A DNA stretch of 41,351 nt from a virus (Duplodnaviria > Heunggongvirae > Uroviricota > Caudoviricetes): the IMG/VR virus record IMGVR_UViG_2541047933_000011; one strand, 5' to 3'. Positions 1,773 to 36,093 of the stretch are shown piece by piece; positions within the stretch are counted from its first letter, which is position 1, and the number at the start of each line of letters is the position of its first letter. The notes below the pieces were generated by a model. It had not been told where the DNA came from and searched no databases. It saw only the letters and a program-made list of their open reading frames with translations. Both the position numbers and the translations under genes were made by a program.

Positions 1773-2398
1773 ACCGCCAGCACCTTACTGGCAGTGATGT
1801 ATCGCGCGCGCCGGTCATCAATGCCGTTCCGGCCACCATTGATAAGCAGAGTTACACGTGCAATATCTCCGGTATACTTCATGCAGCCTTTGCTGGCGAA
1901 GAACCACGCCGCGCTACGAGCCGCATATTCGTCCTGCGCCAGCAGTTCAGGGCTCTCCAGCAGGTCAACCTTCAGACCGTTTCCGCAATCACGATAGTTA
2001 TTCAAACCGGTAATCTGGATAAGTCCGCGCCCTCGGTAATTCCAGCCATCACCAGGGGCATTGTTCCCCATGCGTTTGCTGTACACCAGATTGGCAATCG
2101 CTCTCTGGCGCTCAGGTGGCAATGGTGGTTCGCCTGCGCGTCGCCCCAATGCGTTGGCCTGTCCCTGAGTGAGACGCCCAGCCCGAACAAAGTTAGCCAG
2201 TCCGCTGACGCTGTAGTTGAAATTCTCCTGCAACCGGGTGAAGCCTCCAGACTCATGCCCGACCTGAGCAATAAACATAGCCTGATCTTCTGGTTTGCTG
2301 ATACCAAACTCTTTCATCGCAGAAGTTATATGCGAGAACCAGCGTGCGGCCAGTGCCTCGCTGATACCAGCAGCTCGCTGGAATTGTTTAATCTCCAT
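1769..2398 (-). CDS. endolysin, glycoside hydrolase family 19-like
   Basis: ATG at 2398 with GAGG RBS; motif [10 protein letters not shown]...NFNYS typical of GH19-type phage lysozymes (recalled); the longer ORF to 2563 is an upstream extension. Confidence 0.75.
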
Positions 2399-2696
2399 GT
2401 TTAGACCTCGATACTTTGAAAATTTGAACGACGTTACCGCGCGTTTTAATAACCGCAGCAAGCATGACAGCGTTGATAATGACCTCGGATAAATCCACAG
2501 CCATTGGCGTACGTAACCAGATTGCATAGGCGACTCGAACAGGAATACTGGCCGCAGCAACAATCAGGAAATAAGCAAGCCATCCTCCCCACCTTCGGTG
2601 TTGAGAGCCGTTACGCCGGAATGTGACAACGCGAATTGCTATGCCAGTGCAAATAACTGCATTGGTGATAAGCAAAAAAAACTCATGCGTTACCAT
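2388..2696 (-). CDS. small multi-TM membrane protein in lysis cassette (second holin or antiholin candidate)
   Basis: ATG at 2696 overlapping stop of upstream holin gene; about 3 hydrophobic segments; overlaps endolysin start. Confidence 0.45.
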
Positions 2697-3087
2697 CGTC
2701 TTTTCTCCCCGGAATTAACTCGCGTGGATTATCGGAACGGTGATAGAGCCATATACCAATACGCACAGCGACAATTGCTGACACGAATGCGCCTGCAGAG
2801 AAAACAATCCCTTTTTCAAAAGAGTCCTGCGTGATGGTAGGGATCAGGCTGGCTATGCCGATAAGAATTGATGCTGCTGGTTTGTAAAAGAGAAGGCCGC
2901 AAAGAAAGCTGAGCATCGACAGGAGCACCCGGCGACGGATGGGGTACTCTACTGCAGAGGTAACAAAAATTACCGCCCCAGCCAAAGCCCCTAAAGCAAC
3001 CTCCGGAGGGACACCTGCAATAACTGCAGCAAGAGAACCAAAACTAAGCAACTGATTTAATTGCTCACTTGTTACTTGAGCAGACAT
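2683..3087 (-). CDS. putative holin (about 3 TM segments)
   Basis: ATG 3087 with AGGAG RBS; three hydrophobic helices; first gene of lysis cassette. Confidence 0.55.
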   Translation of the reverse strand: MSAQVTSEQLNQLLSFGSLAAVIAGVPPEVALGALAGAVIFVTSAVEYPIRRRVLLSMLSFLCGLLFYKPAASILIGIASLIPTITQDSFEKGIVFSAGAFVSAIVAVRIGIWLYHRSDNPRELIPGRKDDGNA

Positions 3088-3368
3088 ACTTTCTCCTGTT
3101 TACTATCTATAAGCCAGTCAATTATTGATGACTAAACCCGCATAGTAAACCATATATGAATCATTATTGTTCCATATCATATATCTCAATAAAAGTACTA
3201 ATGATTTTACAGAACGAGCCAGCAGAGTGGGGGCAGTTGTACAGGAACCATAGACTTAATTTTGTATTTAATAATGCTATGGTGTAATAAACCTGAACAT
3301 GTATTTAAAATACGTACTGATTCATGATAGAATTCAAAGATAACTTTTCACCAACTCCGTTTTTGATA

Positions 3369-3395
3369 CCCGCAATATTTTGCGGGCTTTTTTTT
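3369..3395. terminator. stem-loop with flanking A/T runs at 3' end of tail spike gene (possible terminator)
   Basis: CCCGCAA-tatt-TTGCGGG hairpin followed by T9 on plus strand and preceded by A-run on minus strand. Confidence 0.35.
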
Positions 3396-6300
3396 AACGT
3401 TCTTCCAGAGACTGAACCCGCTCTTTTATCTTATCCATTTCTCTGCGCTGCCATGCTGCCTCGATATAGAATAAGAGATCAGGTCTGACCCCCCATCTAG
3501 ATCCTGCTGGCGTTATTTCAACGCGCTCAATGATGTCTTCTATTACCATCACTGGATTATCATCCTCATCAACAATGATGCTCCCGTCATTATCAGTCAG
3601 CGGCATTTCCCTTTGGCCAGTAATGACGTCATCATATACTGCGGGATAATCGTCATAGCAAAGAAAGGCATAGCGGCATGTTGTGCTTTCTTCTTCCATG
3701 AGTCCGTGAGAAATAAGAACATCACGAAGTTGCTGCGCGATTACACCATGATGTATCCTCGCCCCTTCTTCCCCCTTTATAGCGACAGCGTTCAGCCATT
3801 TATAAGCGATATACCTGACGTCACCCCAGGCATCCAGCAATGCTTCGTCAGGAGAGACCGGCTCTGTCTTTAATGTTCCGTCACTGGTAACCACAGGATT
3901 GGAGCCAAGATAAACTGTCGAGAACCTGTTTCCCGGACCACCAAGAGCATTTACATTATCAAGATAAGGTTTAACATCTCCGTTCTCAAAAAGATGTTCG
4001 AGTGCGTTATATACCGCGCGACGTGGAGTACTGCTTCCGGAACCATGCAACGTTATCATTGCACCATCTGCTGAAGACGTTGTTTCACCGCCGCTAACGA
4101 TTAATCTCTGAGCGGTAACATCATCAGACGGTACTTTCTTCGCAATAATGGCGTAATTACCCTCAAGTTTGACTTCCGCGCGAACTTGTCCTGATGTACC
4201 TGCATGGACAGTCAGTGACTGGACGGCAACATCATCTGTGAAATCAACGGGTACAGGAACCGTCCTCACGCCTGACGTCGACATAAAAGTAGGAAGCGTT
4301 CTGTTAGGAGTGGCTCCGTAGACAAAATCCCTTGAAACAAATTCTTCCTGTTTAATTTTCACCCTGAAACAATACAAATCAGCCGGGTGACCATCGTGAA
4401 CATAAGGATATTTTCTGTTGTTATCCCCTATGCTCCATGGGTTTAGAAAGTCTTCCCCACCGAAAATGTAGTACAGCCAGTTGTCTTTGATACAAACTGA
4501 ACCAACACCAACCGCAGAGTTAACTATTCCGCCCTGATAAATCTGATCAGTAACATTAACCCACTCTACATTATCCAGACTCCACTCATTGACGTTAACT
4601 CTGGTCATAAATGTTCTTGGATAATTTCCTGCATAACGGTTATCAGGCTCTCCTCCTTCCCACTCACCAAATGCGCGCTCACTGCCAAAAATAATCAGCT
4701 CATCGCCAACTTTGGCAAAAGGAAGGTTTGAGTGATGAACATTATTTGGGAAGCGAAGAGAATTCCATGATGTACCTAAATCAGAGCTTCTGTGCAATGA
4801 ACTACCGGGTTGAGTACTTAATGTCCCCCTGGTCGTCAGATACAGAATGCCATCATAATATTTTACACATGGCTCAGATGCATTCGCCTCATATTCTGCA
4901 GGTATGCGTCTGCGAACAAAGCTACCAGGAGAACCGAAAGCATCAGAGAAATAGAGTATCCCAAGCTCGCGTGGACCAATATCACCATTATGGTAGCCAA
5001 CAGCAAAACTGTTATCGCTAATCGTCGCAAAACTGTGAATCTCAGTAACAGGAGTGCTTCCGTCAACAAAAGAAGGAATAGTTCCAAGACTGGTTTTTCT
5101 CCATGGTGACGAGTGAAATGATGTACCAAAACTCCAGTATCTACCCTCGTTATTCTGATCCACATCCTGGGTATTTTGCGTCGTAACTGTAAAAGTATTT
5201 TTATCAATAACAGTAGTCACCGTCATATTCCCGGTAACACCTGTAACACCAGAGTTTGAGAAGTTGACAAAATCACCAGCAAATAATCCGTGATCAGTAA
5301 TGCGAATATAAGCGACTTGCTGATTTGCTGCTTTCGTTATACCACCATAAACGCGAAGGCTGCGACTCATTGGGCGATCCCACAACTCTGCAACCTGCAG
5401 TTTATTTCCGCTCACGGTCCGCGTCTCAATTACAGCAAAAAGGCGATTTCTGACAACCCCCATACTCATGCAGTGATAGTTAACTGTGGGATAGTTTTCA
5501 TGTAAATCTGTAAGCCATTCCGGCGTTGTCCAGGTCTTCCCGTCATCTCCTGAGCGAACCCATGCAACATGGAGGTTATTTACACCATGGCGGTCTCCAG
5601 CCATAAAAGGCGCATAGATGACATTGTCATATACAAACGTTTTATCCTGCGTCCAGGCGTTGTACCACGGTGTATCTGTAATTTTAAATAACTCTCCCTG
5701 GATAAAATCTTCAGAAGCATAAAAAAGAGGCTGGCCCGGTATTCTCTCAAATAAAAAACGAGCATTTTTAAATCGACTGACATCCGGAAGAGTTGATACT
5801 TTAAAAGTAAGCCCTAATCCGTCAATTTTATAACCTGGAGATGAGGCTTCAAGGCACGCGCTTATTGCAGTGGAATCGTCATTTATACCATCACCAACAG
5901 CTCCAAAATCTTTGGGGCTAATAGCATCACGCATTTTATCCTGGAACGTTCGGTACACAGCCCCAGAACCATACTGAATAAACCAACCAAAACCACCAAC
6001 AACCCCGGCGATTGCAGCATCGACATAATTACGCATTGAGCGATTATTTACAGCGTCCTGCTCAAATGATGGATCTGCAAGGTTAGAAATTTTGTTTTGC
6101 TTTGCATCGTAATATTTTGCAAGCAAAGATGGTTTCATCAATGCACGTCTGAACCACCCAAAACATTGCTGGATCAGCATCGTCAGGTAGTCAAAGGCAT
6201 CTTCATGCACTTCGGGGAAAAATTTTCCCTGATTGCGAAGGTCTGTCTCCTGCACCACATCAAGCACACGATCTATCGTAATTCGCCATCCAGCAGCAAG

Positions 6301-6513
6301 CGGCGACGGAAGAACAACAGAACCGCCACTATAAGTGCCCGCCCCAGTTACCGTATAACCGGTATCCAGTACTAGTTCTGTTACGTTACCGTTAAGGTCA
6401 GACACCTGAACAACCAGGTCGGATTTTTTGAAAATACGGAAGGTATACGGAAATGATGTCGTAACGCCGTTACCAGTGTATTCGTTGTGGTCAACTTCGG
6501 TTGAGACCGTCAT
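3394..6513 (-). CDS. tail spike: T7 gp17-like N-terminal adaptor, beta-helix/sialidase-like Asp-box region, C-terminal S74-type intramolecular chaperone domain
   Basis: 1039 aa; GGAG RBS; N-terminus YTGNGVTTSFPYTF; DFGAVGDGINDDSTAI pectate-lyase-like motif; Asp-boxes SGDDGKTW and SSDLGTSW; C-terminal GVIAQQL region. Confidence 0.8.
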   Translation of the reverse strand: MTVSTEVDHNEYTGNGVTTSFPYTFRIFKKSDLVVQVSDLNGNVTELVLDTGYTVTGAGTYSGGSVVLPSPLAAGWRITIDRVLDVVQETDLRNQGKFFPEVHEDAFDYLTMLIQQCFGWFRRALMKPSLLAKYYDAKQNKISNLADPSFEQDAVNNRSMRNYVDAAIAGVVGGFGWFIQYGSGAVYRTFQDKMRDAISPKDFGAVGDGINDDSTAISACLEASSPGYKIDGLGLTFKVSTLPDVSRFKNARFLFERIPGQPLFYASEDFIQGELFKITDTPWYNAWTQDKTFVYDNVIYAPFMAGDRHGVNNLHVAWVRSGDDGKTWTTPEWLTDLHENYPTVNYHCMSMGVVRNRLFAVIETRTVSGNKLQVAELWDRPMSRSLRVYGGITKAANQQVAYIRITDHGLFAGDFVNFSNSGVTGVTGNMTVTTVIDKNTFTVTTQNTQDVDQNNEGRYWSFGTSFHSSPWRKTSLGTIPSFVDGSTPVTEIHSFATISDNSFAVGYHNGDIGPRELGILYFSDAFGSPGSFVRRRIPAEYEANASEPCVKYYDGILYLTTRGTLSTQPGSSLHRSSDLGTSWNSLRFPNNVHHSNLPFAKVGDELIIFGSERAFGEWEGGEPDNRYAGNYPRTFMTRVNVNEWSLDNVEWVNVTDQIYQGGIVNSAVGVGSVCIKDNWLYYIFGGEDFLNPWSIGDNNRKYPYVHDGHPADLYCFRVKIKQEEFVSRDFVYGATPNRTLPTFMSTSGVRTVPVPVDFTDDVAVQSLTVHAGTSGQVRAEVKLEGNYAIIAKKVPSDDVTAQRLIVSGGETTSSADGAMITLHGSGSSTPRRAVYNALEHLFENGDVKPYLDNVNALGGPGNRFSTVYLGSNPVVTSDGTLKTEPVSPDEALLDAWGDVRYIAYKWLNAVAIKGEEGARIHHGVIAQQLRDVLISHGLMEEESTTCRYAFLCYDDYPAVYDDVITGQREMPLTDNDGSIIVDEDDNPVMVIEDIIERVEITPAGSRWGVRPDLLFYIEAAWQRREMDKIKERVQSLEER

Positions 6514-6616: not shown

Positions 6617-6633
6617 ATTACCTTTCGGGTAAT
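6617..6633. promoter_or_regulatory. operator-like palindrome ATTACC-tttcg-GGTAAT (perfect)
   Basis: exact 6-5-6 inverted repeat; 37 bp upstream of LexA box and 76 bp upstream of ATG 6709. Confidence 0.6.
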
Positions 6634-6689: not shown

Positions 6690-6708
6690 ATTGCATGGAG
6701 AAGATAAG

Positions 6709-6966
6709 ATGCAGCAGTATCACTATCCACTGGAAGACGGATTTACCGAAAGGATTCACACGCCGGGAGGCGTCAGATCACTGGTGGAGGGATCGCACTT
6801 GATGAAATTACTCCGGGATCTCGATAAGGATGGATTTAATGTCGATGGCCCACTTGCCGAACTGACTGCACTGATTAACTACGTCACCAGCTCACAGATG
6901 TCTATGCAGGATCTGCAAACACATCTCGACTATTGTGCCGAACAATTACGAAAACAAACCACATAA
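6709..6966 (+). CDS. small protein homologous to the C-terminal domain of the Bro-N antirepressor (candidate SOS-inducible antirepressor)
   Basis: 85 aa; GGAG RBS 8 nt before ATG; about 36 percent identity over about 72 aa to the C-terminus of the 8112..8804 product (hand alignment). Confidence 0.6.
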   Translation: MQQYHYPLEDGFTERIHTPGGVRSLVEGSHLMKLLRDLDKDGFNVDGPLAELTALINYVTSSQMSMQDLQTHLDYCAEQLRKQTT

Positions 6967-6971
6967 AGAAA

Positions 6972-6989
6972 AGGCCGCTCTAGCGGCCT
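6972..6989. terminator. bidirectional stem-loop between convergent genes
   Basis: AGGCCGC-tcta-GCGGCCT hairpin overlapping stop of 6988..7716. Confidence 0.45.
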
Positions 6990-7716
6990 ATCGTTTCGCT
7001 TTGTGCTCGTCCCAGCACGTTTTGCACCATGCCATTAAGCCGTCCGCATTTTGATTATTAGGGTAAAAGCTAGTTCGTTTTCTGCGGACATTACAAATTG
7101 GGCACCACTTCATATGGCGTGTATTCTTTGGGCCATCGAGACACCTTGCACACCACTTAGTCAATCCATCTGGATTTTTTGACGATTTCCTGAATTTTTC
7201 ATATGGAAGGTTTATTCTGCATCGCAAGCACTGCTTGCTACCACTTGAAACTCTGTTAGCTGATTCTTCTTTTGGCGGCGATACAGAAGGTATTCTTGCT
7301 GGCTCTGATACTGCCTGAGGTGCTTTTTTAGATGACTGAGACGATATGTCATCACCAGGGAATCTTCCATGATATGCCGGACGCGTTGACACTCCGGGTG
7401 GAAGCTCAGCTGTAAACGGCTTTGGCTGAATCAGTTGCCTCTCTTTTGCTAACTCCTGCTGTTTATAATATGTCTGGATTACCGCGCTATCATAAGCAGG
7501 AGGTACGGAAATATTAGGCGCATTATCTCCCGTTTTTTGAAACTGAGTGGAGGTGTGTTCTATCACCTGTGTACGATTAATCGTTATCTCCCCATCTTCA
7601 GTCTTTATCGTTTTGTTATGATTAACGACCGTACGATCAGAGATCTTAGTCTTGTTCTGGTTGATAACGTAAATAATCACCGCAACCACACCAACAACTA
7701 CCCAGAAAACTTCCAT
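6988..7716 (-). CDS. membrane-anchored protein with C-terminal tandem zinc-ribbon (four CxxC pairs)
   Basis: 242 aa; strong GAGGAAAGG RBS; N-terminal TM helix; C-terminus CLRC...WCARC...WCPIC...WCKTC. Confidence 0.6.
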   Translation of the reverse strand: MEVFWVVVGVVAVIIYVINQNKTKISDRTVVNHNKTIKTEDGEITINRTQVIEHTSTQFQKTGDNAPNISVPPAYDSAVIQTYYKQQELAKERQLIQPKPFTAELPPGVSTRPAYHGRFPGDDISSQSSKKAPQAVSEPARIPSVSPPKEESANRVSSGSKQCLRCRINLPYEKFRKSSKNPDGLTKWCARCLDGPKNTRHMKWCPICNVRRKRTSFYPNNQNADGLMAWCKTCWDEHKAKR

Positions 7717-7735
7717 TGCCTTTCCTCACAATAAC

Positions 7736-7752
7736 ATTACCTTAAAGGTAAT
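7736..7752. promoter_or_regulatory. operator-like palindrome ATTACC-ttaaa-GGTAAT (perfect)
   Basis: exact inverted repeat 20 bp upstream of ATG 7716 (minus strand). Confidence 0.6.
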
Positions 7753-7800
7753 ATCTTGCTTTCAGGTGATCAAGCGTTAAACGCAATCAACCAAATACGG

Positions 7801-7830
7801 TTGATTTTAATATTTCTTCGCGTTTATCAT
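7801..7830 (+). promoter_or_regulatory. candidate sigma70 promoter (TTGATT-18-TATCAT) overlapped by operator
   Basis: -35 at 7801-7806, -10 at 7825-7830; operator 7829..7845 overlaps -10 and start region. Confidence 0.4.
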
Positions 7831-7845
7831 TACCTTTGCGGTAAA
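7829..7845. promoter_or_regulatory. operator-like palindrome ATTACC-tttgc-GGTAAa
   Basis: core TTACC-N5-GGTAA exact. Confidence 0.55.
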
Positions 7846-8111
7846 TTTACATCGCACTCCTCTTGTGCCATAGTAATCGGGCACTGGCAAAATCCAGTGC
7901 CGGGATTGGTCTCCCGGATTACTACAGAGGCACATATGCCGCATAAGCGGTTTTTTTATGTGTAAAGCGCACCTATTCTATGGTGGGCTGTGTGGGGGCA
8001 CCGAAAGGTGCGCCGGGTTCCTTTGTAGCCGGTAAGACCAACTCTGCACAGTTCACCACCATCTGATTGGTCTCAGCGGTGGTGATTAACCTAACTACAA
8101 AGGTGATCGCC
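7846..8111 (+). other. long structured non-coding leader upstream of Bro-N gene (possible attenuator or small RNA)
   Basis: about 265 nt without a credible ORF; hairpins at 7872-7897 and 7996-8011 (GAAA loop); CCGC-ataa-GCGG plus T7 at 7938-7957. Confidence 0.3.
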
Positions 8112-8804
8112 ATGAATACCAAACCTTCCATCTTTTCCTTTGAGTCATCCTGCCAGATCCGTATGTTCATGATTGACGGAGAACCTTGGTTTGTCACCAA
8201 AGATGTGTGCAATGCTTTGAATATTGATGTTACACAAGCGAGAAAACTTGATAAAAAAGGCTGGAACAAAAAGGGGCTGTATTCAATACAGACCCCTGGT
8301 GGAATACAAGAACTATCCATCGTTTCAGAATCAGGTCTCTACATCCTTATTCTGCGTTGCAAAGAGGCAATGACTGAGGGAACGAGAGCATTCAGATTTC
8401 TTGAATGGGTTACAGGTGAGGTTCTTCCTCAGATCCGCCGCACCGGAAGTTACATTAAAAACTCGCTCCCGCAGGAAGAACGCATAAAGATGGTTGCCGA
8501 CCAGGTAGCCAACGCCACAGCATCAGCAGTGATGCAGGCAATGAAGATAGAGAACAAAACCTACAGTGCCCCACTGAAGCCCGGCTACCGCAGCCTGATT
8601 CATTCTCCGTCTGGTGTTCTCGGCCTGACGGAGAACTCATTGCTTATGAATCTGCTAAACCAGTTACAGGAAGACGGGCACGACGTATCGGGCGCGGCGG
8701 CGGAGCTGACCACCATGTTCTGCTACATCGTCGGTGTGAGCAAATGCCTGCGTGATATCCAGACCCACGCGGAGTACATCAACGACAAGGCAGGGTTCTT
8801 CTGA
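8112..8804 (+). CDS. Bro-N domain antirepressor-like protein
   Basis: ATG 8112 with AGGTGA RBS; N-terminal FMIDGEPWFVTKDVCNALNI Bro-N motif; C-terminal domain paralogous to 6709..6966. Confidence 0.75.
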   Translation: MNTKPSIFSFESSCQIRMFMIDGEPWFVTKDVCNALNIDVTQARKLDKKGWNKKGLYSIQTPGGIQELSIVSESGLYILILRCKEAMTEGTRAFRFLEWVTGEVLPQIRRTGSYIKNSLPQEERIKMVADQVANATASAVMQAMKIENKTYSAPLKPGYRSLIHSPSGVLGLTENSLLMNLLNQLQEDGHDVSGAAAELTTMFCYIVGVSKCLRDIQTHAEYINDKAGFF

Positions 8805-8875: not shown

Positions 8876-8892
8876 ATTACCCCAAAGGTAAA
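8876..8892. promoter_or_regulatory. operator-like palindrome ATTACC-ccaaa-GGTAAa
   Basis: core exact; 26 bp upstream of ATG 8918. Confidence 0.55.
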
Positions 8893-8917
8893 CCGAGAGT
8901 TTACATGAGGGGGAAAC

Positions 8918-9106
8918 ATGGAAATCAACATCATTACATTGCTGAAGGCCATTATTGGCGGAGCGGGCTTAGGCTTTGCCCTACCAGGCGGATTATCTTT
9001 CCTGCTTCCTGCTTTTACTGTTACAGCTGGGATAGCCTATGCATTTGCTGTGGCTGGTGCTGTTGCACTCCCTGCTATCTATGCCGCAAAGAAGTTAGCC
9101 AACTAA
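8918..9106 (+). CDS. small hydrophobic Gly/Ala-zipper peptide (bacteriocin-like or membrane toxin-like)
   Basis: 62 aa; GAGGGGG RBS; N-terminal 15 aa ends in GG (MEINIITLLKAIIGG) followed by 47-aa hydrophobic glycine-rich segment. Confidence 0.5.
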   Translation: MEINIITLLKAIIGGAGLGFALPGGLSFLLPAFTVTAGIAYAFAVAGAVALPAIYAAKKLAN

Positions 9107-9107
9107 A

Positions 9108-9440
9108 ATGCCTGATTTATCTTGGCTTGCGCCCAGAGATGCACAGCAATTGACAAGGTTTTATTTCATACTGTGCATTGCTTATCTTGCTGTTCATCTG
9201 ATATGGGATGCCGTTTGCAAAGATACGCCTCCTTTTTCTTTGGATAAGTTGCAATACAAGATGAATGAGGTTTATTCATCATCTACTTTTGCAACCAGCG
9301 CATTCTTCATTGTTATTCTGTTCGATATGAAGAATCCACTGAGAACTTCAGATGCTTTCATATTCCCATTAATTATTGCTGCTCTAACTGGCTTTATGAT
9401 CTCATTATCAGCAATAGTGCCAAAGAAAGTAAATAACTGA
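9108..9440 (+). CDS. 3-TM membrane protein translationally coupled to the hydrophobic peptide (immunity or partner candidate)
   Basis: ATG 1 nt after upstream stop; three predicted TM helices; AT-rich. Confidence 0.5.
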   Translation: MPDLSWLAPRDAQQLTRFYFILCIAYLAVHLIWDAVCKDTPPFSLDKLQYKMNEVYSSSTFATSAFFIVILFDMKNPLRTSDAFIFPLIIAALTGFMISLSAIVPKKVNN

Positions 9441-26014: not shown

Positions 26015-26031
26015 ATTACCTTTCAGGTAAC
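26015..26031. promoter_or_regulatory. operator-like palindrome ATTACC-tttca-GGTAAc
   Basis: core exact; 90 bp upstream of ATG 25925. Confidence 0.55.
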
Positions 26032-26352
26032 CAAAGGGCTCATTCTGGTTACTAACCTGACTGGCTTGTCGTTAAATTAAACAGGTGGAGTGAGCTTTTA
26101 TTTTGAGCAGTACGGCGTATGGCACATGCGCCGATAGCGGTCTGGATACGTTTAAGGGGCACCCTCCCTTGCTCGGGCAAACGAACCAGGTAGCCGGAAT
26201 GTGCAAGTCGAGCGGTTTTATTCCGCGCACGGGGATTCACCATCCCGGCGATTCGGTGTGACGCCTCGGAAGAGACGAGGGTACAACGATGAGAGCATTT
26301 ATGGAGCCGCGACAAAGTGTGGCGCCTTAACAGGCTAAGTGCTCTCAGCGTT

Positions 26353-26429
26353 GTGGCATTAGCTCAGTTGGACAGAGCAACCGCCTTCTAAGCGGTTGGT
26401 CGCAGGTTCGAATCCTGCATGCCACGCCA
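26353..26429 (+). tRNA. tRNA-Arg (anticodon UCU), phage-encoded
   Basis: 77 nt; acceptor stem GTGGCAT/ATGCCAC; D-arm GCTCAGTTGGACAGAGC; anticodon stem ACCGC/GCGGT with loop CTTCTAA; T-arm GCAGGTTCGAATCCTGC; 3' GCCA. Confidence 0.85.
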
Positions 26430-34901: not shown

Positions 34902-34980
34902 GGTAAGCCCTGTTATTAGTATTGGGATTACGGTCATTTTGTGCTGACACAAAAAAAAGATCAACCAGATTTGGTTTTTT

Positions 34981-34997
34981 ATTACCTTTGAGGTACG
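34981..34997. promoter_or_regulatory. degenerate operator-like palindrome ATTACC-tttga-GGTACg
   Basis: one core mismatch. Confidence 0.4.
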
Positions 34998-35365: not shown

Positions 35366-35382
35366 TTTACCTGTTGGGTAAT
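35366..35382. promoter_or_regulatory. operator-like palindrome tTTACC-tgttg-GGTAAT
   Basis: core exact; 55 bp upstream of repressor ATG. Confidence 0.55.
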
Positions 35383-35436: not shown

Positions 35437-36021
35437 ATGAAAAGTATCCAGGACGTCCGCAGGCAAAATCTCAACGACTTGATCGACCGTGAATTCAATG
35501 GTGTTCAGACGCGGATGGCAGAAAAACTTGGAACTCAGGCAAATCTGGTAAACCGCTGGGCTCTTGGCAAGAAGGTTATCGGCGACCAGGTTGCACGAAA
35601 AATTGAAGCTGCCGCCAATAAACCCCGTAACTGGCTTGATATTGATCGTTCGCTTTCTCAGGAGGGTTTTCAGCCTGTCGGCCCGAGCGATATAGGTCAG
35701 CTGGCGGCTCACAACCTGGAACGCTGGATGAGCGAAAGCCGCGACCTTTCAACACAGGGAAAACTTCACCGCGCATCCGGCGTCGCCCAGGTGACAATCA
35801 GCCGCCTGTTAAACAATGAGGTCAGCGTTTCCATTTCCACTCTGGAGAATGTTGCATCCGCATTCGGGCGTCACGGATATGAACTACTGATTCACCCGCA
35901 CGACCCTGCGACTATCAACTATGACCGCTCACGCTACGCATTGTTACCCGAAACCGAGAAAGCAAAGATCGAAAGTTACATTGAATTTGTCATCAACCAG
36001 AACGAAAAAAGCAAACAATAA
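35437..36021 (+). CDS. prophage repressor candidate with two XRE-type HTH domains and no peptidase domain
   Basis: 194 aa; HTH-1 QTRMAEKLGTQANLVNRW, HTH-2 SGVAQVTISRLLNNEVS; no S24 Ala-Gly/Ser-Lys region; no strong SD. Confidence 0.6.
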   Translation: MKSIQDVRRQNLNDLIDREFNGVQTRMAEKLGTQANLVNRWALGKKVIGDQVARKIEAAANKPRNWLDIDRSLSQEGFQPVGPSDIGQLAAHNLERWMSESRDLSTQGKLHRASGVAQVTISRLLNNEVSVSISTLENVASAFGRHGYELLIHPHDPATINYDRSRYALLPETEKAKIESYIEFVINQNEKSKQ

Positions 36022-36076: not shown

Positions 36077-36093
36077 ATTACCTTACGGGTAAT
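36077..36093. promoter_or_regulatory. operator-like palindrome ATTACC-ttacg-GGTAAT (perfect)
   Basis: exact; 19 bp upstream of TTGACA -35. Confidence 0.6.

Follow-up and report, generated by a model that had tools for sequence, protein, structure and literature searches.

A putative repressor operator overlies the promoter of a predicted membrane-tethered tandem zinc-ribbon gene in an epsilon15-like prophage

The stretch of DNA analysed here (the window; 41,351 nucleotides of the IMG/VR virus record IMGVR_UViG_2541047933_000011) carries an accessory cassette of ~860 bp (about 6967-7828) that is complete in itself, with a promoter-operator, a ribosome-binding site, an open reading frame and a terminator. 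It belongs to an epsilon15/phiV10-like temperate podophage, an E. coli prophage, in which the gp19-like gene lies on one side of the cassette and the antirepressor operon on the other. The genes of the locus and the signals that begin and end translation and transcription of the central gene are:

6709-6966, plus strand: gp19-like gene, a small homologue of the Ant C-terminal domain
6972..6989, no strand assigned: GC-rich hairpin AGGCCGCTAGAGCGGCCT, a bidirectional intrinsic terminator (terminator scan)
6988..7716, minus strand: coding sequence of the predicted membrane-tethered tandem zinc-ribbon protein, PHROG 6762 (ORF list, PHROG match, homologues, dN/dS)
6988-6990, minus strand: its stop codon, TAG
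7723..7727, minus strand: Shine-Dalgarno sequence GAGGA, 7 nt 5' of the ATG (read from the sequence)
8112-8804, plus strand: Bro-N antirepressor gene

The minus-strand ORF at 6988-7716 starts with ATG and has a product of 242 aa (ORF list). It is a real gene on which purifying selection acts: in comparison with six alleles that are 95-98% identical to the window gene, with a coding-sequence dS of ~0.05-0.08, dN/dS is ~0.2 overall and at most 0.18 in the zinc domain. The ribosome-binding site that the initial annotation had called strong and the neighbouring antirepressor genes that it had described are both present, the former as the GAGGA at 7723-7727, 7 nt before the ATG, and the latter as the Bro-N antirepressor and the small Ant C-terminal-domain homologue. 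The stem of the terminator hairpin has 7 bp, 6 of them GC, with a T-run on the minus strand. This terminator is common to the 242-aa gene and the convergent gp19-like gene, and it ends a monocistronic unit.

The protein is a typical member of PHROG 6762, whose profile it matches end to end (residues 1-242 on positions 1-242, E=1.7e-149, 497 bits). It had been described as belonging to no known family. That stands insofar as no functionally characterised family contains it, but it is a member of PHROG 6762 and its zinc module can be placed among Stc1-like/HNH-accessory ribbons (below). PHROG 6762 has no assigned function, so membership says nothing about mechanism, and an NCBIfam scan of the protein and its neighbours gave no useful match. 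We found 33 homologues in Enterobacterales and about 50 full-length representatives of the family at the 50% identity level. The exact protein sequence is present on 421 contigs, and 129 out of 5,426 complete E. coli genomes carry the gene, counting matches that cover at least 80% of the query region; in E. coli K_EC180 the identity over the locus is 100%. It is a common but uncharacterised accessory gene. In TL-2011b the ORF is intact, although the region is annotated as a misc_feature and not as a CDS.

The product is divided into five segments, listed here from the N-terminus:

7651..7710, minus strand: codons for residues 3-22, the single N-terminal transmembrane (TM) helix (AF2, hydropathy, conservation)
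7561..7632, minus strand: codons for residues 29-52, a conserved juxtamembrane beta-hairpin (T-I-K-T-E-D-G-E-I...R-T)
7243..7560, minus strand: codons for residues 53-158, a Ser/Pro/Ala/Gln-rich linker (pLDDT, composition, alignment gaps)
7129..7242, minus strand: codons for residues 159-196, zinc ribbon 1, C163-x2-C166 ... W188-C189-x2-C192 (invariant Cys and Trp, pLDDT >90)
6991..7128, minus strand: codons for residues 197-242, zinc ribbon 2, C205-x2-C208 ... W230-C231-x2-C234, and a basic C-terminal helix

The single N-terminal TM helix reported earlier is borne out by hydropathy, which finds one hydrophobic segment (Kyte-Doolittle peak 2.3 at residues ~1-19, with every other scanning interval at or below 0.07), and by the AF2 model, in which residues 3-22 are helical with pLDDT ~90. 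The helix is kept in all aligned family members. Only Met-Glu precedes it, and K22, K24 and R28 follow; because of the positive-inside rule, we infer an N-out/C-in topology with the ribbons in the cytoplasm. We also considered a periplasmic Cys-rich domain and rejected it on account of the positive-inside rule and of the homologous modules in cytoplasmic enzymes. The strands of the juxtamembrane hairpin are modelled at residues 29-39 and 42-52 with low pLDDT (~50), and in the family alignment T39 and G42 never vary, while K38 and E43 hardly do. The linker of ~100 aa is largely disordered (AF2 pLDDT <50 at residues 53-75 and 96-155), and both its length and its sequence differ among homologues, as alignment gaps indicate. 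The initial annotation was right that there is a linker, but the composition it gave, Thr/Gln/Pro-rich, gives way to a measured richness in Ser, Pro, Ala and Gln.

Composition and cysteine positions agree with the basic C-terminal domain and the four CxxC pairs in two ribbons that had been described. The C-terminal 84 aa have a pI of 9.9, with 20 K+R against 6 D+E. The CxxC pairs start at C163, C189, C205 and C231, with a 22-residue spacing in both ribbons, and a Trp stands directly before C189 and C231 and also before C205. None of the eight Cys, nor W188 or W230, varies among 34 family members whose identity goes down to 20-30%, and the AF2 pLDDT is >90 across the ribbon region. The domain architecture is that of a predicted bitopic inner-membrane protein, in which an N-terminal anchor and a flexible linker carry a tandem zinc ribbon that should lie in the cytoplasm. 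The layout of TM helix, hairpin, linker and ribbons is retained down to 20-30% identity.

The relatives of the zinc module fall on two sides. In the AF2 model the C-terminal domain, for which the initial annotation had called for structure prediction, is a tandem ribbon whose top Foldseek match in the PDB, of modest significance, is S. pombe Stc1 (2LUY; E 4.7e-3, probability 0.89). Stc1 (PF12898) is also the only family match in Pfam (E 5e-4), at 21.0 bits and thus under the 24.8-bit gathering threshold; multi-repeat bacterial relatives of the module pass that threshold (P0062 with 60.3 bits, P0073 with 56.2 bits). Like Stc1, the module has two consecutive four-Cys ribbons with eight conserved Cys (C-x2-C-x22-C-x2-C units). 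Stc1, however, is a soluble eukaryotic adaptor that links RNAi to chromatin modification, a protein-protein adaptor and not a DNA binder, whereas the window module is prokaryotic or viral, strongly basic and predicted to be membrane-tethered. A literature search on Stc1-type fingers in phages found nothing relevant.

On the other side are DNA enzymes. PHROG families annotated as endonuclease VII, HNH endonuclease and DNA primase match the zinc module through their N-terminal accessory ribbons; the endonuclease VII and HNH endonuclease families match each ribbon with E values of 2e-11 to 2e-5, and viral HNH endonucleases in BFVD match the module with E as low as 2e-7. PacI, Hpy99I, phage endonuclease VII and HNH homing endonucleases share the motif C-x2-C...F...(D/N)G...W-C-x2-C with the window protein. 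These His-Me (HNH) nucleases have a catalytic beta-beta-alpha-Me core and neither a TM anchor nor a long linker, and the window protein is the reverse. The PHROG and structural matches to nuclease families are limited to the ribbon segments (residues 142-192 and 197-241), and no Pfam HNH or Endonuclease_7 match to the 242-aa protein was found at E<=1. The protein has no nuclease domain, and the sequence outside the ribbons leaves no place for a catalytic core. A Mokosh MkoC-like SF1 helicase (P0102) also carries the module, as a C-terminal fusion. We conclude that the module is of the Stc1-like/HNH-accessory ribbon type, and that a membrane anchor is here joined to a zinc module otherwise found on DNA enzymes and a Mokosh-like helicase, an arrangement with no known counterpart among characterised phage proteins. 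A structural or assembly role was set aside, as no search of the 242-aa protein returned such homology.

Upstream of the gene lies a divergent control region with the following elements:

7736..7752, no strand assigned: exact 17-bp putative repressor operator, ATTACCTTAAAGGTAAT on the plus strand (motif enrichment, epsilon15 annotation, conservation)
7745-7750, minus strand: putative -10 element TACCTT, inside the promoter-proximal half of the operator
7768..7773, minus strand: putative -35 hexamer TTGATC, 17 nt upstream of TACCTT (sequence, recurrence, invariance)
7785..7806, no strand assigned: inverted repeat AATCAACC-N6-GGTTGATT between the divergent promoters (listed as a hairpin in the terminator scan)
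7829..7845, no strand assigned: second operator, ATTACCTTTGCGGTAAA, with 1 mismatch (motif search)
7846-7874: promoter-like site TTTACA-17-CATAGT (promoter scan)
7881-7957: isrK-like RNA
7976-8063: C4 RNA

The exact operator palindrome that had been placed 20 bp upstream of the gene is indeed there at 7736-7752, its near edge 19 nt from the ATG. When up to 2 mismatches are allowed, ATTACC-N5-GGTAAT occurs at 15 sites in the window against 1.17 expected, and none of 100 shuffles reached 15; 11 of the copies are intergenic. The Cro/CI intergenic region contains the operator at 35366 and two degenerate copies ~24 bp apart, and the operators at 36077 and 36139 lie after cI (the OL region), on either side of a TTGACA promoter; the ORF of the CI-like protein is at 35437-36021. 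In the RefSeq record of epsilon15, seven ATTACC-N5-GGTAAT sites are labelled 'repressor, lysogeny', one of them upstream of gp19, and on the basis of that annotation we assign the sites to the repressor. By its identity to these sites and their enrichment, the palindrome at 7736-7752 can be considered the putative operator of the prophage's own repressor. The epsilon15 genome paper reportedly proposed ATTACC-N5-GGTAAT as repressor sites; a literature search for the motif together with epsilon15 found nothing relevant. In the related phage ZX5, overexpression of the repressor lowered lytic-gene transcripts by >99.9% (PMC9782041).

The best candidate for a promoter is embedded in this operator. 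TACCTT agrees with the consensus -10 at three of six positions, and a generic promoter scanner made no call for TTGATC-17-TACCTT. It is nevertheless the only plausible promoter, and the operator would overlap both its -10 and the transcription start, which should fall near 7738, ~7 nt beyond TACCTT. Among the E. coli-type loci the operator is identical in 53 of 54, and the -35 hexamer and the 17-nt spacer are invariant across all 54. Enterobacter/Citrobacter/Salmonella-type loci have TTGACC-17-TACCTT in the same promoter-operator register, and the TTGAnC-17-TACCTT architecture recurs in L005, L062-L068 and L089; the same register is found with TTGATC in L068 and with TTGAAC in Serratia. A Providencia locus keeps the register with a different palindrome, ATTAACC-N5-GGTTAAT, and TTGAAT-17-TAACCT. 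Within the window itself, the operator at 26015 has the same architecture with a perfect TTGACA. The putative promoter-operator register is conserved between the window and at least four diverged lineages. CI as an activator of the gene was rejected: only 28 bp separate the conserved ATG from the operator centre, too few for a downstream promoter.

Examined as a candidate operator of its own phage, the Providencia palindrome showed no significant repetition in its 14.6-kb locus: it gave 3 matches with up to 2 mismatches, a number reached by 10 of 200 shuffles. A scan of viral contigs for it returned mostly chance matches and one paired site, L166, and the fetched locus of L166 had no tblastn match to the window proteins tested. 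No operator-like palindrome was found upstream of the distant homologues L072, L077, L083, L084, L087 and L091, and likewise none at the L071-L087 promoters. Because the promoters of these distant homologues have no palindrome, operator control is not universal in the family.

The rest of the control region faces the antirepressor operon. The second operator, the partner of the first in the divergent control region, lies 93 bp away (centre to centre) and abuts the -35 of the isrK/C4/ant promoter. The inverted repeat at 7785..7806 may be a site for protein binding, IHF-like or of another kind, or may act as an insulating hairpin. A resembling element at 34962-34978 adjoins the operator at 34981, and the epsilon15 record annotates IHF sites beside repressor sites.

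Comparison with related phages indicates that the cassette is an optional addition. Both flanks align in phiV10, ZX5, phiv142-3 and others, in which the part of the window from ~6990 to 7825 is missing, and in EC.W1-9 two unrelated genes occupy the slot. The palindrome at 7736-7752 is an exact instance of the 17-bp site of an epsilon15-type repressor regulon, but epsilon15 and phiV10 do not have the 242-aa gene; here the operator would be carried on, or recruited by, an accessory cassette. With the promoter placed inside the operator, epsilon15-like phages might hold even dispensable cargo under direct repressor control. In structure the cassette resembles a moron: it has its own putative promoter (7745-7773) and terminator (6972-6989), and it is present or absent between collinear phages. 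As to transcription in the repressed prophage, the operator over the -10 speaks against it in the window, and a homologue that lies in an mnt-like operon speaks for it in another phage. We would caution that an autonomous prophage cassette need not be a lysogen-expressed 'moron' or defence gene.

That homologue (L092, 39% identity) is the exception in the matter of silencing. In a P22-type immI region, 11 bp separate it from the mnt-like gene upstream of it, and ejection-protein genes are next to it. It occupies the P22 orf59a/sieA position and would be made in lysogens. Because it should be co-transcribed with the mnt-like gene, silencing in lysogens would not be family-wide.

In the window, the gene is probably off in lysogens and on at induction or infection, since the repressor operator overlaps its -10 and transcription start. 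This prediction bears on the proposal of the initial annotation that the gene is a lysogen-expressed exclusion or defence factor, SieA-like in role, for which absence of expression in lysogens had been named as contrary evidence; the predicted off state counts against it on that ground. SieA, 162-164 aa long, has three TM helices and, on its cytoplasmic side, the motif FxRYPxEAxxFNK; it is expressed from its own promoter in the prophage (PMC10883804). The two are alike in location: both proteins sit in the inner membrane (by prediction, for the window protein), and the gene of each belongs to the antirepressor (immI-type) accessory region of a temperate podophage, which lies between the tailspike gene and the ejection-protein genes. 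They differ in that the window protein has zinc ribbons, a promoter predicted to be occluded by repressor, and one TM helix where P22 SieA has three (or four). BLASTP against P22 SieA gave E 0.22 over 7 residues, which is no similarity, and FxRYPxEAxxFNK is absent from the 242-aa protein. PADLOC-DB v2 had no family match at E<=0.1 for the protein and its two neighbours.

We suspect that the gene encodes a bitopic membrane protein that is silent in lysogens, is derepressed in the lytic programme and binds nucleic acid at the inner face of the inner membrane. We put the probability of this reading at about 0.35, so it is tentative. CI on the operator would block RNA polymerase, assuming that the single operator is occupied in lysogens, and the gene would be switched on whenever active repressor is missing, as in prophage induction, antirepressor action or a fresh infection. 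The Cro-like protein would probably damp the gene again. The linker of ~100 residues would hold the strongly basic tandem ribbon in the cytoplasm, and we speculate that the lytic-phase protein could there bind nucleic acid at the membrane and so tether or trap DNA. That DNA might come from the phage itself (its genome during replication or entry), from the host or from a superinfecting phage. We favour nucleic acid as the ligand because the module matches the ribbons of DNA enzymes, is fused to a helicase and has a pI of 9.9. A role in core DNA replication or DNA entry is unlikely, because the gene is dispensable and is absent from phiV10 and epsilon15. Points against the reading as a whole are the Stc1 adaptor as top PDB match, the sub-threshold Pfam score, the weak -10, the distant homologues whose promoters have no palindrome and the context of the L092 homologue.

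There is a precedent by analogy in Phi29 p16.7, an integral membrane protein that brings phage DNA to the membrane (PMC4974454). Like p16.7, the window protein would be made early and would combine an N-terminal anchor with a cytoplasmic nucleic-acid-binding domain. There is no homology between the two, and p16.7 serves protein-primed replication in a Bacillus phage. The DNA-binding domain of p16.7 is not a zinc ribbon.

The best placed of the alternatives, itself improbable, is that the ribbons bind a protein instead of nucleic acid, in the manner of an Stc1/LIM-like tandem finger, and hold this partner at the membrane. Candidate partners would be the repressor, the antirepressor, the gp19-like Ant C-terminal-domain protein, a host nuclease, RNA polymerase or a division protein. 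Homologues repeatedly adjoin antirepressor-type genes of five families (Bro-N, KilA-N/ANT, pRha, ORF6N and P22_AR_N), and conservation of the TM helix and of the juxtamembrane hairpin points to a specific interaction close to the membrane. However, the adjacency may merely reflect the accessory, immI-like region of epsilon15-like phages, and the contexts of L071/L072, L077, L089 and L091 contain no antirepressor-type gene. The nearest phage and viral relatives in sequence and structure are accessory ribbons of DNA enzymes, and the strongly basic character of the domain also speaks for nucleic acid over a protein partner.

We think it unlikely, and somewhat more so, that the protein is made in lysogens and acts in superinfection exclusion or defence, blocking incoming DNA at the inner membrane or aborting phage growth in a SieA-like role. 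The sieA-like position of the L092 homologue after an mnt-like gene speaks for such a role, and homologues in accessory regions often adjoin toxin-antitoxin modules, namely HicAB (L004, L090) and a HigBA-like pair (L084, assigned from ORF translations only). The predicted membrane location is as for SieA (PMC10883804), and the helicase to which the module is fused is of a defence type, Mokosh MkoC-like. Against this, the repressor operator lies over the putative -10 and start in the window and at least four diverged lineages, neither SieA similarity nor a PADLOC model match was found, and the predicted functional domain would be cytoplasmic and zinc-dependent and would not face the envelope.

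The preferred reading, a lytic-phase membrane protein that binds nucleic acid, could be taken further. The family might represent a new class of phage effector, a lytic 'DNA trap' at the inner membrane in which nuclease-free HNH-type ribbons are held on a long tether and regulation follows the carrier phage, by the CI operator in epsilon15-like phages and by the mnt operon in P22-type immI phages. Such a trap could exclude superinfecting genomes while the resident phage replicates, or could pin the host nucleoid. We regard this extension as doubtful. If DNA is indeed tethered or trapped at the membrane, it would be a new mechanism for phage exclusion or host takeover.

Quite improbable is an early lytic toxin for host takeover, which would inhibit division or disturb the nucleoid, for instance by fixing host DNA at the membrane, and which the repressor would silence in lysogens because the product harms the host. 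The logic would be comparable to that of lambda Kil or P1 Icd. A dispensable cassette under apparently tight operator control is in keeping with it, as are the ZipA-like predicted topology (bitopic, with a long flexible linker) and the position beside a P1-immI-like C4 RNA/ant operon; in P1, the C4 RNA/ant operon also holds the division inhibitor icd. But the protein has no homology to any known division inhibitor, and the L092 arrangement implies that the product is tolerated in lysogens.

Finally, the view that the gene is a decaying, functionless leftover of a homing HNH endonuclease whose catalytic domain is gone is strongly disfavoured. In its favour are the matches confined to the zinc-ribbon part of HNH/EndoVII families and the misc_feature record in TL-2011b; against it are an ORF that is intact in TL-2011b and matched at >=80% coverage in 129 complete E. 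coli genomes, the low dN/dS (~0.2 overall, at most 0.18 in the zinc domain), and a full architecture kept to 20-30% identity together with a conserved promoter-operator.

The ORF at 6988-7716 is a real gene. PHROG 6762 matches its product end to end (E=1.7e-149); the initial annotation recognized no known family, and this one, although already catalogued, is indeed without an assigned function. There are 33 homologues across the Enterobacterales (identity down to 38%), and an exhaustive HMM search gave about 50 further full-length family representatives (identity down to 20-30%). These share a layout of TM helix, hairpin, linker and double ribbon, and all of the cysteines (8/8) and both tryptophans are invariant among them. 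Comparison with close alleles gives a dN/dS of ~0.2 for the whole gene and <=0.18 for the zinc domain. The gene is found in 129 of 5,426 complete E. coli genomes, every time on the chromosome and always annotated 'hypothetical protein'.

Features of the window
3394-6513, minus strand: tailspike, K1-type endosialidase by domain matches
6709-6966, plus strand: gp19-like protein, 85 aa, within the listed 91-aa ORF 6691-6966
6972-6989, both strands: bidirectional terminator hairpin
6988-7716, minus strand: 242-aa ORF with an ATG start; Shine-Dalgarno GAGGA 7 nt before the ATG
7785-7806: 8+8 inverted repeat, AATCAACC-N6-GGTTGATT
7829-7845: second operator, 93 bp centre-to-centre (~nine helical turns) from the palindrome at 7736-7752
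7881-7957, plus strand: isrK-like Hfq-binding sRNA, 74.7 bits
7976-8063, plus strand: C4 antisense RNA, 78.6 bits
8918-9106 and 9108-9440, plus strand: two small hydrophobic ORFs, 62 and 110 aa
35052-35282, minus strand: Cro-like ORF
35437-36021, plus strand: CI-like HTH protein, 194 aa
6617, 7736, 7829, 8876, 26015, 32980, 33042, 34981, 35366, 36077, 36139: intergenic operator copies

The window represents an epsilon15/phiV10-type (Uetakevirus-like) temperate podophage or prophage. Around the gene, its DNA is best matched by Escherichia phage TL-2011b (94.7% identical over the whole query), phiV10, ZX5, phiv142-3 and relatives. The endosialidase is complete, with N-terminal extension, beta-propeller, beta-barrel and stalk domains and a Peptidase_S74 chaperone domain, and is borne by an epsilon15-like chassis rather than a T7-like or P22-like one. 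A lambda-like immunity region at 35-36 kb comprises the CI-like and Cro-like ORFs together with O/P-like replication genes (minus strand) and recombination genes (plus strand). The CI-like repressor has two separate HTH-type matches (YdaS-like, residues 21-61; HTH_3, residues 106-147). An S24 peptidase domain is absent, which is consistent with induction via antirepressors rather than RecA-mediated autocleavage. In ZX5, the Bro-N antirepressor promotes the lytic cycle, and overexpression of the homologous repressor lowers the transcripts for endolysin and holin by >99.9% (PMC9782041).

The exact palindrome that had been reported near the promoter, ATTACCTTAAAGGTAAT at 7736-7752, lies 19 nt from the ATG. 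Its motif, ATTACC-N5-GGTAAT with <=2 mismatches, occurs 15 times in the window (1.17 expected), 11 times between genes. The copy at 35366, between Cro and CI, has two degenerate copies alongside, ~24 bp apart, a tripartite layout that recalls OR. Those at 36077 and 36139, directly after cI, flank a TTGACA promoter facing the recombination genes. Seven sites with this very motif carry the annotation 'protein_bind: repressor; lysogeny' in the epsilon15 RefSeq record; one of them lies upstream of gp19, and three adjoin the repressor gene. Motif copies at the CI/Cro and OL regions, the epsilon15 annotation and the ZX5 repressor data together indicate that the palindrome is the prophage repressor's operator.

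Upstream of the gene, the minus strand reads TTGATC (7773-7768), a 17-nt spacer and TACCTT (7750-7745), and this last hexamer forms the inner portion of the operator's left half-site. The predicted -10 and transcription start are covered by the operator, which is a repressing geometry. We ruled out an activating geometry because the operator centre is just 28 bp from the conserved start codon. From the coverage of the -10 and start, we predict silence of the gene in the lysogen and expression upon induction or infection. The arrangement recurs as TTGACC-17-TACCTT in Enterobacter/Citrobacter/Salmonella-type homologues of 61-63% identity, as TTGATC-17-TACCTT at L068 (another homologue's locus) and as TTGAAC-17-TACCTT in Serratia. 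In a Providencia homologue the palindrome itself differs (ATTAACC-N5-GGTTAAT), and TTGAAT-17-TAACCT lies within it. Across 54 E. coli-type loci, neither the -35 nor the spacer varies, and the operator is exact in all but one (53/54); synonymous divergence of six alleles from the window gene is ~0.05-0.08 in the coding sequence. No recognizable palindrome was found at the more distant homologues. The cassette seems to take up the regulatory logic of its resident phage.

The gene belongs to an autonomous accessory cassette within the variable antirepressor region. The inserted unit has its own terminator hairpin, ORF, ribosome-binding site, operator and promoter, and 8+8 inverted repeat, and phiV10 and several relatives align on both flanks yet lack window ~6990-7825. 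In phiV10, an operator and the antirepressor-operon promoter come within ~30 bp after the gp19-like gene; in EC.W1-9, two unrelated ORFs fill the slot. Most homologues sharing the promoter geometry have the gene elsewhere and in the other orientation, downstream of ant on the same strand, and thus the promoter-operator either travels with the gene or is re-created for it. The homologues of 61-63% identity carry a 14-bp palindrome, TGTGACATGTCACA, directly upstream of the cassette -35 (L004 ~5925-5940; L061-L067). The matching position in the window holds the different repeat at 7785-7806, and a similar element at 34962-34978 adjoins operator 34981. Both kinds of element may be sites for a second regulator or IHF.

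Every element initially described at the locus (ORF, TM segment, linker, ribbons and palindrome) is present. The sole hydrophobic segment sits at the extreme N-terminus, as the single TM helix had been placed. The linker of ~100 residues, low-complexity and mostly disordered by composition and AlphaFold2, is Ser/Pro/Ala/Gln-rich, not Thr/Gln/Pro-rich as stated. The C-terminal domain is basic, as proposed (pI 9.9 over the last 84 residues), with four CxxC pairs in two ribbons: C163-x2-C166...W188-C189-x2-C192 and C205-x2-C208...W230-C231-x2-C234. An AlphaFold2 model built with the family alignment has a confident TM helix (residues 3-22), a conserved though low-confidence beta-hairpin (29-52), a disordered linker and a compact tandem zinc-ribbon domain (160-241; pLDDT above 90). 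Because the helix has Met-Glu alone before it and K22, K24 and R28 after it, the positive-inside rule would place the C-terminal domain in the cytoplasm. That placement fits a zinc-thiolate domain with relatives in cytoplasmic enzymes.

The zinc module is the only part of the protein with a Pfam match, to Stc1 (21 bits; threshold 24.8 bits). Among viral predicted structures it resembles accessory zinc fingers of HNH endonucleases and endonuclease VII from giant viruses and actinophages (35 matches, E<=1e-3). Each ribbon separately is matched by PHROG families annotated as endonuclease VII, HNH endonuclease, DNA primase and Lar-like restriction alleviation protein. The exhaustive search indicates that the module is mobile, since it occurs alone (for example P0118, an 85-aa protein), in long tandem arrays that exceed the Stc1 threshold, and fused to HEAT/TPR proteins and to an SF1 helicase (P0102, 1237 aa) whose helicase part matches the Mokosh defence protein MkoC (E 3e-66). 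The tail of P0102, C-terminal to the MkoC-matching region, is a tandem zinc ribbon with a motif nearly identical to that of the window protein. The window protein has no nuclease core. Given the ribbon relatives in DNA enzymes, nucleic-acid binding would be the most economical reading of the module, tempered by Stc1 itself being a protein adaptor.

We propose, with a probability of about 35% for the whole chain, that loss of repressor would fire the promoter, that the protein would insert in the inner membrane, its basic double ribbon reaching into the cytoplasm by a long flexible tether, and that in the course of the lytic programme it would bind nucleic acid at the membrane. The DNA bound may be that of superinfecting phages (trapped), the host's (pinned) or the phage's own (organized). 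A functional precedent, without homology, is phi29 p16.7, which resides in the membrane as an integral protein and recruits phage DNA to it (PMC4974454). Since epsilon15 and phiV10 lack the gene, it is dispensable and unlikely to serve in core replication or entry.

It is credible, if rather unlikely, that the protein is instead a membrane-sequestering protein adaptor, which the Stc1/LIM-like fingers and recurrent adjacency to antirepressors would favour. More doubtful is the initial proposal of a lysogen-expressed exclusion or defence factor, because the operator covers the promoter -10 and start at this locus. P22 SieA (162-164 aa, three TM helices) is prophage-expressed from its own promoter (PMC10883804), whereas the promoter here is overlapped by the repressor site. 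SieA offers no likeness in sequence (BLASTP E 0.22 over 7 residues), and no PADLOC model matches the protein. The architecture and operator of the initial annotation stand, and its expression state is probably wrong. The idea of a lysogen-expressed exclusion factor is still alive for the family as a whole, given the arrangement at one locus, the family's toxin-antitoxin and antirepressor-type neighbours, and the distant homologues without the palindrome. At that locus (L092, 39% identity), 11 bp and no terminator separate the start of the gene from a preceding mnt-like gene, within a P22-type immI region (2151-4193) where arc and ant diverge and a P22-like arc operator sequence is present. This homologue takes the place of P22 orf59a/sieA, adjoining ejection-protein genes, and should be made in lysogens. 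After it, a 287-aa ORF sits where P22 has sieA. In other phages the gene lies beside HicAB (twice) or a HigBA-like pair (judged from ORF translations only), and antirepressor-type genes of five families are further neighbours. An early host-takeover toxin, for example a division inhibitor, is improbable, and a decaying nuclease remnant is hardly tenable, being contradicted by purifying selection.

The gene is common and oddly built. Zinc modules of its kind are known; the undescribed variants are its nuclease-free, membrane-tethered architecture and the cassette design with a promoter inside an operator. Current evidence points to no surprising mechanism.

The spread of the 11 intergenic operators across the entire genome suggests that the repressor controls many transcription units individually. 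In the plus-strand stretch 26015-26429, a perfect TTGACA-17-TACCTT promoter embedded in operator 26015 faces the phage tRNA-Arg(TCT) gene (26353-26429), which would be repressor-controlled. The pairs 36077/36139 (OL) and 32980/33042 are each 62 bp apart (~six helical turns); these spacings and the 93 bp at the cassette are compatible with cooperative binding or looping. Operator 7829-7845 directly borders the promoter of the divergent operon of isrK-like RNA, C4 RNA and ant, and the start of the predicted promoter TTTACA-17-CATAGT (7846-7874) is exactly the first base of the isrK model. The two RNAs lie in tandem between this operator and the Bro-N gene (8112-8804), the same style of RNA control of an antirepressor as P1/P7 immI, inside an epsilon15-like podophage. 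The gp19-like protein, whose gene has a separate operator at 6617, is homologous to the antirepressor's C-terminal domain and stands alone; PHROG 450 matches both (91-aa ORF residues 7-90, Ant residues 162-243). Operator 8876-8892 lies before the two hydrophobic ORFs, of which the 110-aa one has no Pfam match and the 62-aa one gave an uninformative search, and 8876-9440 is a candidate further repressor-controlled accessory unit.
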